Source: a virus
Reading direction: 5' to 3' (one strand)
IMG/VR virus record: IMGVR_UViG_3300045918_000348
Location: 1-57,271 of that record
DNA length: 57,271 nt
Position numbers and translations under genes: made by a program. Within the stretch, counting starts at the first letter, position 1, and every line of letters starts with the position of its first letter. A model generated the notes under the pieces. It did not search any database. It was not told the DNA's origin and saw nothing but the letters and a program-made list of their open reading frames with translations. Below, piece after piece: positions 400 to 13,063 of this stretch.

Positions 400-485
400 C
401 AAGACGTAACTTTACTATTGACAATGTGGCTCCCTTCATGATATTATTAGTTGTGGCCACTTTGTGGTTTACTTTATACGCTTAA
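396..485 (+). CDS. putative 29-aa membrane peptide
   Basis: ATGA overlap with the stop of 217..399. Hydrophobic core FMILLVVATLWFTLY. Below the length threshold of the ORF track. Confidence 0.3.
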   Translation: MTRRNFTIDNVAPFMILLVVATLWFTLYA

Positions 486-1132
486 CTTTGAGGCGGCATC
501 AAGTCTGCTTCAAAGTCTAAACCCTTCGGATTGGTCTTATTCCAACGTCTAATAACTTCAACCATATGGTGAATAATGTCGTGAATAATCTTTAGACTCC
601 TTCTATGGGGTTTAGGCAGTCGCTTTACAATGGCCCGCATTGGCACACCCTCAGCGTGCATCTTAATTGCCATCATATATATAGGTTTACTAGGCTTATA
701 TTGCTTAACGTGAGTCAACCAATTAGTCAATCGTCTATAATAAGTCTGTTTTTCAGTAGTAAAGCCTTTCGCAATGGCTGATAGGGACTTACAATTCATT
801 AGAGGCGAGAAGTCTTTGGCTTGCGAGTTCCATCGCTCAATATCTTCAAAGCCTTTAGACTTGAGTTTTGCGTACCATTGAGCCTGCAAGCTATACATTT
901 CAGCGCTTAATAACTTGATTGGAGCCTTTGAGGCTGCCTTTGGAGCCTTTGAGGCTGCCTTTGGAGCCTTTGAGGCTGCCTTTGGAGCCTTTGAGGCTGC
1001 CTTTGTGACTACTTTATGGTGTTTTCGTTTTAGTTTGATACGTTTGAGGGACTTTTTAGGTTTACTTTTAGGTTGATTGTGTGGAGGGATGTGGAACTGA
1101 ATTGGCCTTTTGGCCTGCATTACAAGTGTCAT
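482..1132 (-). CDS. Lys/Ala/Pro-rich repeat protein (histone H1-like AASKAPK x4) with a possible C-terminal HTH
   Basis: 216-aa ORF and the only minus-strand gene in the left arm. Basic N-terminus with 4 perfect heptad repeats. The C-terminal segment MAIKMHAEGVPMRAIVKRL looks like an HTH. Confidence 0.65.
   Translation of the reverse strand: MTLVMQAKRPIQFHIPPHNQPKSKPKKSLKRIKLKRKHHKVVTKAASKAPKAASKAPKAASKAPKAASKAPIKLLSAEMYSLQAQWYAKLKSKGFEDIERWNSQAKDFSPLMNCKSLSAIAKGFTTEKQTYYRRLTNWLTHVKQYKPSKPIYMMAIKMHAEGVPMRAIVKRLPKPHRRSLKIIHDIIHHMVEVIRRWNKTNPKGLDFEADLMPPQS
921..1004. repeat. 4 perfect tandem copies of the 21-bp unit GGAGCCTTTGAGGCTGCCTTT (encodes AASKAPK on the minus strand)
   Basis: Direct reading: units at 921, 942, 963 and 984. 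Confidence 0.95.
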
Positions 1133-2208: not shown

Positions 2209-2384
2209 CTTACATATATTTAAATGCCATTACTAAGCTTCATTCAAGTGTCATCTATTATGAGGACATAATGAAATATTGCGGACCAATTGAGGTCAAA
2301 GCTTATCGTCTCAGAATGATGCGCCACTTGGCCCTTATTAATAAAATAAAAAAACGTATGGCCCTTAAGTTTTCAACAAAGTAA
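2205..2384 (+). CDS. putative 59-aa protein (GTG start)
   Basis: GTGA overlap with the previous stop, with an AAGGAG SD upstream. The ORF runs into module E4. Confidence 0.35.
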   Translation: MTYIYLNAITKLHSSVIYYEDIMKYCGPIEVKAYRLRMMRHLALINKIKKRMALKFSTK

Positions 2385-2402
2385 CCGATAAGTATATTAT
2401 AA
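2363..2402 (+). promoter_or_regulatory. Early promoter-like module E4 (CCTTAAGTTT, TAACCGATAAG 2382..2392, TTATAA 2397..2402)
   Basis: Same boxes as E1-E5; 26 nt upstream of the ATG at 2428. Confidence 0.45.
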
Positions 2403-2427
2403 GTTAACCCTAACAGGAGGTTCTCAA

Positions 2428-2808
2428 ATGCTAAACTACTATATAAATACAAGTCCAGAAATGGGGCGCGGGTTATATGCAGCTCAAGACTTACAGCAAA
2501 ATCGAATTCTATTCACTGCAGAATTATTAGTGTTATCTGAAAATGATACCATTAAAGTTAATGAGACGGACCTAAAATGGTACACTTTTAAGTATACTGA
2601 TAAGCAAGATTGCCTTGTGTTAGGCGATGGTGAGATTTTCAACCATTCAGATATGCCCAATGTCGGTTACCGTTTGATTGACTATGATGACAGACAAGTA
2701 ATGGCCTTTTATTTATTAAGGGACGTGTCTACGGGCTCCCAATTATTTATTGATTATGGGGCAGACATTGCAGTTGATACTTCAAAGTATACTGTAAATA
2801 TGTTTTAA
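2428..2808 (+). CDS. minimal SET-domain protein (putative protein lysine methyltransferase), 126 aa
   Basis: GRGLYA near the N-terminus, FNHSDMPNV (compare NHSCxPN) and QLFIDYG (compare ELxFDY). The size is typical of a stand-alone SET core. Confidence 0.75.
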   Translation: MLNYYINTSPEMGRGLYAAQDLQQNRILFTAELLVLSENDTIKVNETDLKWYTFKYTDKQDCLVLGDGEIFNHSDMPNVGYRLIDYDDRQVMAFYLLRDVSTGSQLFIDYGADIAVDTSKYTVNMF

Positions 2809-3828: not shown

Positions 3829-4025
3829 CAAAATATAGTTATTATGCTGATGAGTTAACCAAACTACAAGATTCGGAGTTTTATAAAACTTTAGTAATAT
3901 CTGATGGCATCGGAAATGCAACCAAACATTTAGGAGTCAACCTCGAATCAATTAAAATTTTGCAAAAATGGTTGAAACATGAAGCAAAACGTCTTAAAGT
4001 TACTTGCAAAGGGGCTTCAAAATGA
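3825..4025 (+). CDS. hypothetical protein (66 aa)
   Basis: ATGA overlap with the upstream stop. Confidence 0.55.
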   Translation: MTKYSYYADELTKLQDSEFYKTLVISDGIGNATKHLGVNLESIKILQKWLKHEAKRLKVTCKGASK

Positions 4026-4432
4026 TTGCCATTTTAGGGGCCCTTCTAATAACAACGGCCCACGGCCAAAGTCAACCGATAAATAAAGTGACTAAAGCCC
4101 TTCTCAGTGCCATTAGTCAACTTGAATCAAACAAGCAATTAGATTCAGTGCGTATAAATAAAAATGGAACGGTTGATTTGGGCCCATTCCAAATAAATTC
4201 AGTCAACTGGTCAAAGTGTGTAGGCTTAAAATTGCAATCATACCAAGGTGGTGCCGCGTGCGCAACTCGCTTGCTCAACAAACACTTGAAACGGGCTTCG
4301 CATGACCCTTGCTGGTTCGCATCGTATCATTCTAAGACACCTCAAAAGAAAATATATTACTGCAAAAAAATAAATGAGATATTGAAAAATAATGTTGAAG
4401 TTTCTTTAAAAGGTGCCGATGAGATGATATAA
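4022..4432 (+). CDS. secreted lytic transglycosylase (SLT-like)
   Basis: Signal-like N-terminus MIAILGALLITTAHG. ISQLES contains the candidate catalytic Glu and is followed by GPFQINSVNW (compare GLMQI). The start was moved to the ATG at 4022, behind AAAGGGG. Confidence 0.72.
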   Translation: MIAILGALLITTAHGQSQPINKVTKALLSAISQLESNKQLDSVRINKNGTVDLGPFQINSVNWSKCVGLKLQSYQGGAACATRLLNKHLKRASHDPCWFASYHSKTPQKKIYYCKKINEILKNNVEVSLKGADEMI

Positions 4433-4465: not shown

Positions 4466-4672
4466 ATGACAAAAACTAAAACAGAATTAGATTACTCAAA
4501 AATAACCGATGTTGAAATTAACGGCATTGATTCTAATGATTACCCCGAATTTGCTGATGCCTACATTGCATCGGCTGATTATGATGGTAGACCAATGACA
4601 GACGAAGAATTGGACGACCTAAACAATGATTCAGAATTTGTTTATGAACAAGTTAACAAGCATTTATATTAA
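4466..4672 (+). CDS. hypothetical acidic protein (68 aa)
   Basis: AAGGAGGT SD 7 nt upstream. Confidence 0.65.
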   Translation: MTKTKTELDYSKITDVEINGIDSNDYPEFADAYIASADYDGRPMTDEELDDLNNDSEFVYEQVNKHLY

Positions 4673-5922: not shown

Positions 5923-6121
5923 AACGAACTTAAAATTGCCCGCGAATTGGTTACCTATAATTGAGCTGCATAGAGATGGGGAAACTCATTTTGAGGAGCC
6001 TAAATGGATTAATCTCGACCGCTTATATGAAATTAAAATGAAACCTAACAGTGACCTTTATACTGCAGCCTTACAAGACCGAAGTTTTATAACTTTTAGA
6101 CTTATCAAGGAGGAAACCTAA
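5915..6121 (+). CDS. hypothetical protein (68 aa)
   Basis: ORF in a tightly packed operon. Confidence 0.55.
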   Translation: MNKTNLKLPANWLPIIELHRDGETHFEEPKWINLDRLYEIKMKPNSDLYTAALQDRSFITFRLIKEET

Positions 6122-6123
6122 AA

Positions 6124-6402
6124 ATGGGAAAAATTAAAGACTTAACAATTGATAATGATATAACTGAAAATTCAGAAAGTGATTTAATGAGTCATTTGTA
6201 TGGTTTGCCAACTGACGATGATTTTTGGAAAACATATCACGAAGCGAAGGAACAAATAAATAAACTTTATAGCGGTACTATGCCATTGATTGATAATTAT
6301 ACAGACCATTTATATGAAACTGACCCCGCCGAGTACGAACGTCAAAAGGAAGCCCTCATTAAAAGCTCACGCTTATATGACCCAAATAAAGATAAGTTAT
6401 AG
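6124..6402 (+). CDS. hypothetical acidic protein (92 aa)
   Basis: AAGGAGG SD upstream. Confidence 0.6.
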   Translation: MGKIKDLTIDNDITENSESDLMSHLYGLPTDDDFWKTYHEAKEQINKLYSGTMPLIDNYTDHLYETDPAEYERQKEALIKSSRLYDPNKDKL

Positions 6403-6726: not shown

Positions 6727-6907
6727 TGAAACTCAAAATGCTCAAATCAATTATAATGGTATATGAACCTACAATCAATAAGTTAGCTACACCACTTTTG
6801 TCAAAACTTTCCCAAAAAACACAATGTGTGTGTCGTGAAGACACAGAGCATATTTTCAAATTTCCATTTTCCCTAATGATTTCAAGGAGCCTATTTTTGA
6901 CCCACTT

Positions 6908-6998
6908 CCTCTTTATTTACTTATTATATATTTTTAAAAAATACAGCAGACACAGAAGCAATGTTTTATGGGAAAGTTTTCAGCACCATAGACTTGCA
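6908..6998 (+). promoter_or_regulatory. 91-bp regulatory cassette, copy A (inverted partner at 55851..55941)
   Basis: The first 35 nt are identical to the reverse complement of the partner, a further 23 nt are identical (TGTTTTATGGGAAAGTTTTCAGC), and a GACACAG site lies between them. Sits upstream of the replication operon. Confidence 0.7.
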
Positions 6999-7052
6999 AA
7001 TTAAAATGATTCGTGATACATTAACAATGACTGCAATTTAAGGAGCCAAAAA

Positions 7053-8525
7053 ATGACCATAAAACCATCACTAACTCAATTTTGTCAATGGTATGTCTGG
7101 CTGCAAGATGAGGGCATATTTTACGATACCAGAATACACAGAGCTCGCTCTGAAACTCACATTATTAGTGAAATGCTCCAAATAGATTTTAACGGCAACG
7201 TTGCCGAAGTCATAAAGTCAATGAAAATGATGGGCACTAGTAGAGATAGTTTAAAAGATACCAAAAAACTAACAAAAAAACCAACAAAAGTGGACTTAAG
7301 TCGCCAACTTTACAATGAAGTTAAAAGTAGTTTGCCAGTGAGACTGCAAGTTATGCCCCCTGACTTACTTGTATATACTATCAATAAACAAAATGAAGTT
7401 TCCCTATTCTCAAAATTTGATAATCAGGTTTTAATTAAACTGCTATATGACCATCCAGAAGTGAACTCTATAATTAAAGTGGCACTAGAAAATTGTGACT
7501 TAGGGTCTAAGTTGGAGTACACCGATTACTTGCAACTATTAGCAAAACAAATTTCAGGTGACCATTCATTAAGTTTGCCTCGCAACATTCCATTAATAAG
7601 TTGGGACCCAAACATTGCAGCATATAAGTCTCTCGATGCTACGATTTTAAAAGATGGGCCCCATCCGACATGGGACCAATTTTTATCCCGCTTAGAGTAT
7701 CCAGAAACTTTTAAGGCTTATGTATGGTCTATATTTGACCCAAACAATTTTGGCCGTCAAGCTTTGTGGATACATGGTGAGGGTAATGATGGAAAAAGCA
7801 CAGTATTAAATACGTTAGCCGATTTTATGGGCCATGACCATGTTTTAGCCCTCTCAAAAGGTTCGTATGAAGGCGAATACTTTTTCGGGGCTGCTTTAGG
7901 GAAGCGTCTAGCCATCTACAATGACTGTAAAAACCCACACGTTATAAGGTCGGAGCGCATCAAAAGTTTACTAGGCGGCGACGTTGTTAGTGCAAACTCA
8001 AAATATATTCCAATTAAATCTGCAAAAGTTTACAGTAAGCTTTTATTTGGTGCAAACATGGTCCCGTCAATAAACTACAATGATAGAAGTGAACGCACAA
8101 GGCTACTACTCACTGCAGTAACGCCATATCCGAAAGCTACACAAGGAGATGCCAATTTTGGGCCCAATTTAAAAGCCGAGTTACCTCATTTTTTATTTTC
8201 CTGCAGGCAAACGTATGAAGTGGAATGCCCAACTGGTATGAACTTAAGAGTGCCACCAAAAATGGACGATACCATTAAGCAACTTTGTAATGCTTCTGAC
8301 AGTGACATAATTACAGACTTTATTAATAAGCACGTCGAAATGGGCTCAAAGTTTAAGGTTTCAAAAACAGACATGAGATATGCACTGAAAACATACTTAA
8401 GTGGGCAATTCATGACCAATAATCAAATGCAGTTTGCTGACCTAGACCTGCAGAAAACTCTACTTCAAATGGACATCATATTGGATGCTGGACACTATGT
8501 AGGATGCCAATTGAGACGTTTGTAG
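7053..8525 (+). CDS. SF3 helicase-like NTPase (P4/D5-type primase-helicase C-terminal domain)
   Basis: Walker A HGEGNDGKST, followed by KRLAIYNDC (Walker B-like). The layout is typical of D5/P4 family replicative NTPases. Confidence 0.65.
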   Translation: MTIKPSLTQFCQWYVWLQDEGIFYDTRIHRARSETHIISEMLQIDFNGNVAEVIKSMKMMGTSRDSLKDTKKLTKKPTKVDLSRQLYNEVKSSLPVRLQVMPPDLLVYTINKQNEVSLFSKFDNQVLIKLLYDHPEVNSIIKVALENCDLGSKLEYTDYLQLLAKQISGDHSLSLPRNIPLISWDPNIAAYKSLDATILKDGPHPTWDQFLSRLEYPETFKAYVWSIFDPNNFGRQALWIHGEGNDGKSTVLNTLADFMGHDHVLALSKGSYEGEYFFGAALGKRLAIYNDCKNPHVIRSERIKSLLGGDVVSANSKYIPIKSAKVYSKLLFGANMVPSINYNDRSERTRLLLTAVTPYPKATQGDANFGPNLKAELPHFLFSCRQTYEVECPTGMNLRVPPKMDDTIKQLCNASDSDIITDFINKHVEMGSKFKVSKTDMRYALKTYLSGQFMTNNQMQFADLDLQKTLLQMDIILDAGHYVGCQLRRL

Positions 8526-12498: not shown

Positions 12499-12702
12499 AT
12501 GATACACCCATATGATAAGTTTTTACGCTTTGTAGATAAGTTGCGTATACGTGTAAAGTGGAATAAGCACCGAAAAAGTGATGCCGAAATGCTTATTAAA
12601 CTTTTAGATGAAATTGCAAAAGAAAATGCTTCCCCTCAGAAGGAAGTTAGTATACAATTAGAAGAGTCACTTAAACGAATAAAGGAGCAACAAAATGGGT
12701 AA
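12499..12702 (+). CDS. hypothetical protein (67 aa)
   Basis: AAGGAG SD upstream. Confidence 0.6.
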   Translation: MIHPYDKFLRFVDKLRIRVKWNKHRKSDAEMLIKLLDEIAKENASPQKEVSIQLEESLKRIKEQQNG

Positions 12703-13063
12703 TGGTAAAATTATTTTTCTAGCTGCAATAATTAGTTTATCTGCCTGTGCAAAAAGAGACGTTAGGTTTATTAATGGTGAAAAGGGTCGTCAGGGCCAGC
12801 AAGGTCAACAAGGTAATCAAGGCCAATCAGGTAATGATGGACAAAATGGGCAAGCTGGTTTAAATGGTCAAAGTTGTACCGTATCTGCTACTTCAAATGG
12901 AGCCCTTATAACTTGCCCAGACGGTTCAATGGTTGAAATTTTAAATGGCTCAAATGGCTCAAATGGCTCAAATGGCTCAAATGGCTCAAATGGCTCAAAT
13001 GGTCAAGATGGAACAAATGGACACTCTGAACAAGATGGACATTCAAATGAAGGTCACCAATGA
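12695..13063 (+). CDS. lipoprotein with a collagen-like G-X-Y tract and an (NGS)n repeat
   Basis: Lipobox-like IISLSAC. Tracts GEKGRQGQQGQQGNQGQSGNDGQNGQAGLNGQ and NGSNGSNGSNGSNGSNGSNG. Confidence 0.65.
   Translation: MGNGKIIFLAAIISLSACAKRDVRFINGEKGRQGQQGQQGNQGQSGNDGQNGQAGLNGQSCTVSATSNGALITCPDGSMVEILNGSNGSNGSNGSNGSNGSNGQDGTNGHSEQDGHSNEGHQ
12943..13005. repeat. 9-bp tandem repeat AAATGGCTC x6 plus one degenerate copy
   Basis: Direct reading; encodes the (NGS)n tract. Confidence 0.9.

Follow-up and report, generated by a model that had tools for sequence, protein, structure and literature searches.

vSET (A612L; PDB 1n3j and 3kma), the 119-residue methyltransferase of histone H3 lysine 27 encoded by chlorovirus PBCV-1, is produced by a virus of a eukaryotic alga, acts on nucleosomal H3, and works as a dimer. 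Set7 from Schizosaccharomyces pombe (PDB 5h6z), a nuclear SET histone methyltransferase that is also small (169 residues, with extra C-terminal residues), is likewise eukaryotic, and its substrate, histone H3, is not present in bacteria. Two single-domain prokaryotic enzymes acting on basic DNA-associated proteins offer the closest functional analogy to the action proposed here: cpnSET from Chlamydia, which methylates Hc1 and Hc2, and Go1-SET from Methanosarcina, which methylates MC1-alpha (PMC3980110). Here, we report the analysis of a gene encoding a stand-alone SET-domain protein of 126 residues at positions 2428 to 2808 of IMG/VR record IMGVR_UViG_3300045918_000348, which covers a complete viral genome of 57,271 bp and carries direct terminal repeats (this whole stretch of DNA is referred to as the window). 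This gene is carried by a phage, unlike those of cpnSET and Go1-SET, which are cellular and chromosome encoded, and it is likened to them by function, not by sequence. Its product is very probably a genuine SET-type protein-lysine methyltransferase, with an activity predicted from the sequence.

The Pfam SET profile (PF00856) matched residues 13 to 111 over its entire length (positions 1 to 105 of 105) with an E value of 1.1e-12 and 48.7 bits, for a curated cut-off of 22.4 bits, and a genome-wide profile search gave an identical match. The nearest PDB entries by sequence were S. pombe Set7 (3e-9) and PBCV-1 vSET (3.6e-6), with E values of 2.8e-15 and 3.1e-9, respectively, when a profile of the family was used. 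The Pfam score over the full profile and these PDB matches indicate that the SET match is not a chance event. An AlphaFold2 model based on 100 relatives (mean predicted local distance difference test [pLDDT] score, 91.7; predicted template modeling score, 0.83) displayed the SET beta-fold, and Foldseek searches with this model retrieved SET domains at a probability of 1.00 in the best 40 matches listed. Both segments that would form the pseudoknot, NHS and C-terminal (ELxF/YDY), are present, and superposition of the model on SET structures gave a root mean square deviation of 2.2 Å. The profile search and the structure comparison that a preliminary description of this DNA had proposed as checks both led to the SET family. 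As also pointed out there, the protein is close in size to the smallest known viral SET protein, the length of vSET being confirmed as 119 residues. Similar to vSET, it consists of a bare SET core, with no other domain and a single Cys, implying that pre-SET and post-SET zinc clusters are absent. It differs from vSET by its strongly acidic character (isoelectric point [pI] of 4.3), by a family-specific, highly conserved SET-I segment, and by its origin in a bacteriophage, for which a bacterial host is presumed and no histone is expected.

Conservation was assessed in alignment A1, which contains 33 relatives with 50 to 71% identity, and in alignment A2, which contains 100 relatives with identities down to ~27%. 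The gene and its motifs are as follows (ORF, open reading frame; AdoMet, S-adenosylmethionine).

2428..2808 (stop codon included), plus strand: coding sequence of the 126-residue stand-alone SET-domain protein, with an ATG start.
2464..2481, plus strand: GRGLYA segment, residues 13 to 18.
2464..2472, plus strand: G13-R14-G15, the AdoMet-binding GxG motif with which the SET domain begins, invariant in A1 and matching GRGLF in MLL1 and GRGVF in Set7 by alignment.
2581..2583, plus strand: Y52, the conserved Tyr of the SET-I/lysine-channel region (YTF), invariant in A1 and in alignment A3, at least 90% conserved in A2, and aligned with Y50 of vSET.
2638..2664, plus strand: FNHSDMPNV segment, residues 71 to 79.
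2641..2664, plus strand: N72-H73-S-D-M-P-N78-V, the NHSxxPN motif, with N72 and H73 invariant in A1, aligned with NHS of vSET, Set7, and MLL1.
2743..2760, plus strand: L106-F-I108-D-Y110-G, the ELxF/YDY-type motif, with Y110 invariant in 100 relatives.

The three segments on which the SET assignment had originally been based (GRGLYA, FNHSDMPNV, and LFIDYG, the last at residues 106 to 111) are all found in this ORF. Residues G13, R14, G15, Y52, N72, H73, Y110, and Y121 are invariant in A1; A2 retains H73 and Y110 without exception and G13, R14, G15, Y52, N72, and N78 in at least 90% of its sequences. The catalytic Tyr, whose absence would have spoken against the assignment according to the preliminary description, is present as Y110, which HMMER alignments place opposite Y105 of vSET (ISY105G), ISYG of Set7, and YDY of MLL1. 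By alignment, the protein contains the AdoMet motifs (GxG and NHSxxPN) and the catalytic and channel Tyr residues of SET methyltransferases, and it is apparently catalytically intact. In SET8/MLL-type enzymes, the Phe/Tyr switch is located two positions before the catalytic Tyr. This position is occupied by Ile (I108) in the phage protein, as in vSET and Set7, and Ile108 would not restrict the enzyme to monomethylation, thereby allowing multiple methylation. The SET-I segment, which helps bind the substrate in SET enzymes, is unusually conserved (DTxKVNETDLKYYTF), being almost invariant across phages of several lineages and G+C contents. This near invariance of a substrate-recognition segment across lineages suggests a single conserved bacterial target.

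A word-indexed search revealed at least 312 clusters of relatives at 90% identity, nearly all of 125 to 132 residues, some on contigs of 52 to 61 kb, i.e., the size of this genome, and others on contigs of 70 to 157 kb. An exhaustive search afforded 1,362 clusters (50% identity) at E values of ≤1e-3 and 124 at ≤1e-10, most of the proteins containing 105 to 170 residues. Pattern scans identified 8 loci in IMG/VR and 33 in metagenomes (freshwater, sediment, soil, rhizosphere, and Baltic), and the pI of the family is uniformly acidic (4.1 to 5.4). Two motif patterns of the family, derived from A1, gave 43 matches in a set of 185,579 prokaryote genomes (one per species), and none of these matches was confirmed as a relative. 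The SET protein had no match among the defense and counterdefense families of PADLOC.

The rarity of SET proteins in phages, which had been assumed at the outset, holds for GenBank phage records and PHROGs. Each SET query matched 0 to 3 of 50,697 GenBank phage records. The protein of the window matched one, from Vibrio phage GR11A (GR11A_00061; 31% identity), which is annotated as a hypothetical protein and located in the replication region; a SET protein from a group of 82- to 204-kb phages matched none of these records. PHROGs contained no real family for the SET protein (best E value, 0.019). Rarity does not extend to uncultured phages, as shown by the large number of clusters and by BFVD, which contains several models named SET domain containing protein from uncultured Caudovirales phages. 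The best of these, A0A6J5L8Y2 (128 residues), is annotated as a small SET protein and has a template modeling score of 0.78 to the model of the phage protein. ORF62 of Stenotrophomonas phage Ps15 has been listed as a SET domain protein, with no comment added (PMC9025141). A0A6J5L8Y2, GR11A_00061, and Ps15 ORF62 have been described as annotations only, and their phage lineages and gene contexts differ from those of the window. No functional study of any phage SET protein was found in the literature searched. SET genes are thus already annotated in uncultured phages, and the present family is widespread in environmental phages.

Close fused forms of the family were not found, which counts as weak evidence by the search tool's own caveat. 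Among distant longer relatives, P0162, P0176, P0178, P0183, and P0213 (259 to 320 residues) are tandem double-SET proteins, each matching PF00856 in full twice; ubiquitin is fused to SET in P0274, and eight SET stretches are present in P0204 (799 residues). No cupin fusion was seen among these longer relatives. The double-SET proteins, possibly a SET dimer in covalent form, fit a dimeric minimal core and provide an indirect hint for a homodimer. A double-SET query matched three GenBank phage records, 735-kb uncultured phages among them. In the unannotated record of one 735-kb uncultured phage, we noted a SET-like stretch (LR756501.1, positions 692225 to 692557) displaying 31% identity to P0176 (E value, 4e-8).

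The SET ORF is located in a plus-strand block of small ORFs of the early type, and its ATG codon at 2428 is preceded, 7 nucleotides (nt) upstream, by a strong Shine-Dalgarno site, AGGAGG. The sequence ahead of the gene contains the following element.

2353..2427, plus strand: promoter-like module (CCTTAAGTTT ... AACCGATAAG ... TATATT) and AGGAGG ribosome-binding site, from aligned copies (repeat families D11 and D6).

Five aligned copies of this module start at positions 140, 1216, 1438, 2353, and 2853 and share the same layout, CCTTAAGTTT, then AACCGATAAG, then a TATAAT-like hexamer, with the Shine-Dalgarno site and ATG codon located 20 to 30 nt further on. The fourth copy directly precedes the SET gene, in agreement with the early promoter module that had been attributed to it, and a sigma-70-like hexamer pair was detected at 2370 to 2400. 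The modules are putative promoters. Downstream of the gene, a search for a terminator was negative, the GGCCCC...GGGGCC stem folding no better than shuffled sequences (z = -0.6). A recurring CCAGTKGGCCC box with an A/T run behind it was noted downstream of several early genes (positions 1407, 2822, 8538, 11585, and 13148 of the window), the copy at 2822 lying immediately after the SET gene; as terminators, these boxes likewise fold no better than shuffled sequences (z = -0.6 to +0.8). An antisense ORF (2484 to 2660) that appeared conserved in two other loci (L021 and L027) was rejected as a mere shadow of the conserved SET gene.

The 57,271-bp genome encodes a family A DNA polymerase, a primase, an exonuclease, a large terminase, and portal and tail proteins, indicating that it belongs to a tailed phage. 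Small ORFs come first on the plus strand (~1.3 to 22 kb), followed by replication genes, and the structural genes occupy the minus strand (22 to 56 kb); the phage is lytic looking. All SET loci examined look like phage DNA and represent at least four gene contexts, on contigs with G+C contents of 28 to 47%. Loci L002 and L011 come from phages like that of the window, with SET proteins sharing 56 to 66% identity. In L002 (47% G+C), the SET gene is followed by an SLT-like homologue of ORF 4004-4432, a primase gene, and a protease-like gene. In L011 (43% G+C), the order is terminase-side genes, a homologue of the Lys-rich gene of the window (see below), the SET gene, and homologues of ORFs 4466-4672 and 4004-4432. 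The location of the SET gene has thus been maintained in this clade despite considerable divergence. The other carriers comprise phages with neighboring DUF7178 and WYL_2/Sm-like genes, 82- to 204-kb phages with metallophosphatase and YopX genes, and phages with VWA-like DUF2201 and MoxR AAA ATPase genes. Since there is no constant neighbor, the SET enzyme appears to act alone. In a maximum-likelihood tree, SET sequences clustered by phage group, and those of the 82- to 204-kb phages (L006, L007, L008, L033, L034, and L035) were nested within another group (L003, L004, and others) with support of 100/95, indicating that the gene has been transferred at least once between phage lineages.

Taken as a whole, the likely reading of the locus is that of a minimal SET methyltransferase that is produced in the early block from its own promoter-like module and is most likely directed at a host protein. 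The gene would be transcribed from this module during host takeover. The bare SET core, probably homodimeric by analogy with vSET, would transfer methyl groups from AdoMet to one or a few lysines of a basic, widely conserved protein. We infer this substrate class because the family is acidic, its SET-I segment is conserved, and no phage partner is constantly associated with it. A nucleoid-associated protein, a ribosomal protein, or a transcription or translation factor of the host would be the most likely target, ahead of any phage protein restricted to one lineage. The host option is also the simplest one, with cpnSET/Hc1 and Go1-SET/MC1-alpha as precedents.

Several observations weigh against this reading. 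The C-terminal ~12 residues, which are expected to help close the lysine channel, are of low confidence in the AlphaFold2 model. The early timing is deduced from gene order and the repeated promoter-like sequence alone, and a phage-encoded target is possible for this particular phage. No tRNA gene was found in the 57-kb genome, and there is no near phage relative that would point to a host or to a named target. The first 8 kb had no match among the GenBank phage records in a near-DNA search. The relatives of the DNA polymerase are remote, the best match being the polymerase of a Flavobacterium phage (38% identity), and the terminase has only ~23% identity to those of cultured phages.

A phage-encoded candidate, which the preliminary description had put forward as a plausible substrate, is the product of the following gene.

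482..1132, minus strand: Lys-rich basic protein of 216 residues (pI 10.6) with four KAASKAP repeats.

According to this alternative, the SET enzyme would methylate lysines in the disordered KAASKAP tail of the phage's own protein, as cpnSET does for Hc1 (PMC3980110), which provides a precedent for a writer-substrate pair. The two genes flank the early control region and are separated by 1,296 nt, matching the 1.3 kb first given. The protein contains 35 Lys and 12 Arg residues; its first 75 residues contain 19 Lys, 13 Ala, and 9 Pro residues, the four KAASKAP repeats being encoded by a 21-nt tandem repeat, and this basic tail contrasts with the acidic pI of the enzyme. In L011, the sole related phage with both flanks visible, the two genes are ~1.4 kb apart and the homologue also has a Lys-rich N terminus. 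This homologue is the only one detected, and it shares 35% identity over the helical C-terminal part but does not keep the KAASKAP repeats. Within the clade of the window, the pairing cannot be separated from shared ancestry, which explains the co-occurrence in L011. No homologue was found at E values of ≤0.01 in three 96 to 100% complete SET phages of other lineages, nor did any of 38 other loci contain one within 6 to 10 kb of SET, indicating that the pairing is not a conserved feature of the family. A large homologue search retrieved only the protein itself, low-complexity words having filled the candidate list.

The Lys-rich protein had also been described as histone H1-like. Its composition and repeats agree with this description, but no linker-histone H1/H5 winged-helix or Hc1-type match was found in Pfam (E ≤ 0.01) or PHROG, and the protein had no match at all in these two databases, in PADLOC, or in the ESM Atlas. 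The resemblance to H1 is one of composition only (Lys/Ala/Pro repeats). An AlphaFold2 model based on two sequences (pLDDT score, 46) was too poor to use beyond a hint of a disordered tail and a helical body and is uninformative as to fold. These results do not sustain the Lys-rich neighbor as the substrate, and we regard its methylation by the SET enzyme as improbable. Even less probable is the more elaborate version of this proposal, in which the early SET enzyme would write methyl-lysine as a chromatin mark on the Lys/Ala/Pro tail of a divergently transcribed, basic, helical, and possibly DNA-binding phage protein. If true, methylation would regulate binding of the protein to phage or host DNA, in a bacterial-virus analogue of histone-tail methylation.

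It is just as doubtful that the SET protein modifies virion or replication proteins of the phage itself. The position of the SET gene in locus L026, between homologues of structural-module genes and not in an early block, would fit such self-modification of the phage proteome. However, the window, L002, and L011 have the gene in the early block, with all structural genes on the other strand, and no structural gene is a constant neighbor of SET. Finally, a catalytically dead SET fold acting as a nonenzymatic binding module, or a chance ORF, is very improbable, since the poorly modeled C-terminal tail has to be set against cofactor and catalytic motifs that are invariant under long divergence, a strong ribosome-binding site, and homologues that number in the hundreds and agree in length.

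The methyltransferase with a host target, which we retain as the preferred reading, belongs to a kind that is already known, that of minimal viral and prokaryotic SET methyltransferases, and what is reported here is a secure annotation, not a surprise. Phages are known to use ADP-ribosylation, phosphorylation, and acetylation to take over their hosts, but, to our knowledge, methylation of protein lysines is not established as a tool for this purpose. The proteins of this family are small, easy to express, and apparently active, and they occur in phages of several lineages from freshwater, soil, and sediment. Once identified, the target would reveal a new type of phage-host modification, and the enzyme would provide a very compact lysine methyltransferase scaffold.

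Additional observations were made on the clade of the window. L011 encodes a tyrosine recombinase (positions 6792 to 7451, minus strand; Phage_integrase, E value of 2.9e-23) and a LuxR/GerE-type regulator (positions 6076 to 6366, plus strand), both located between the late block and the Lys-rich gene. ORF comparison detected no homologue of either gene in the window, and members of the clade may differ in lifestyle. ORF 4004-4432 of the window (plus strand) encodes a small secreted-looking protein that is kept just downstream of SET in L002, L011, L005, and L020. The window copy had no Pfam match at 0.01; its homologue in L011 was assigned to the SLT lytic transglycosylase domain (E value, 3.9e-6). 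A 26-bp unit (repeat family D3), present in ~5 tandem copies, makes up the left end of the window (positions 1 to 130). In the early/middle region, 9-nt repeats (AAATGGCTC) occupy positions 12934 to 13023 within ORF 12695-13063, a repeat-peptide gene with homologues in L002 and L037.
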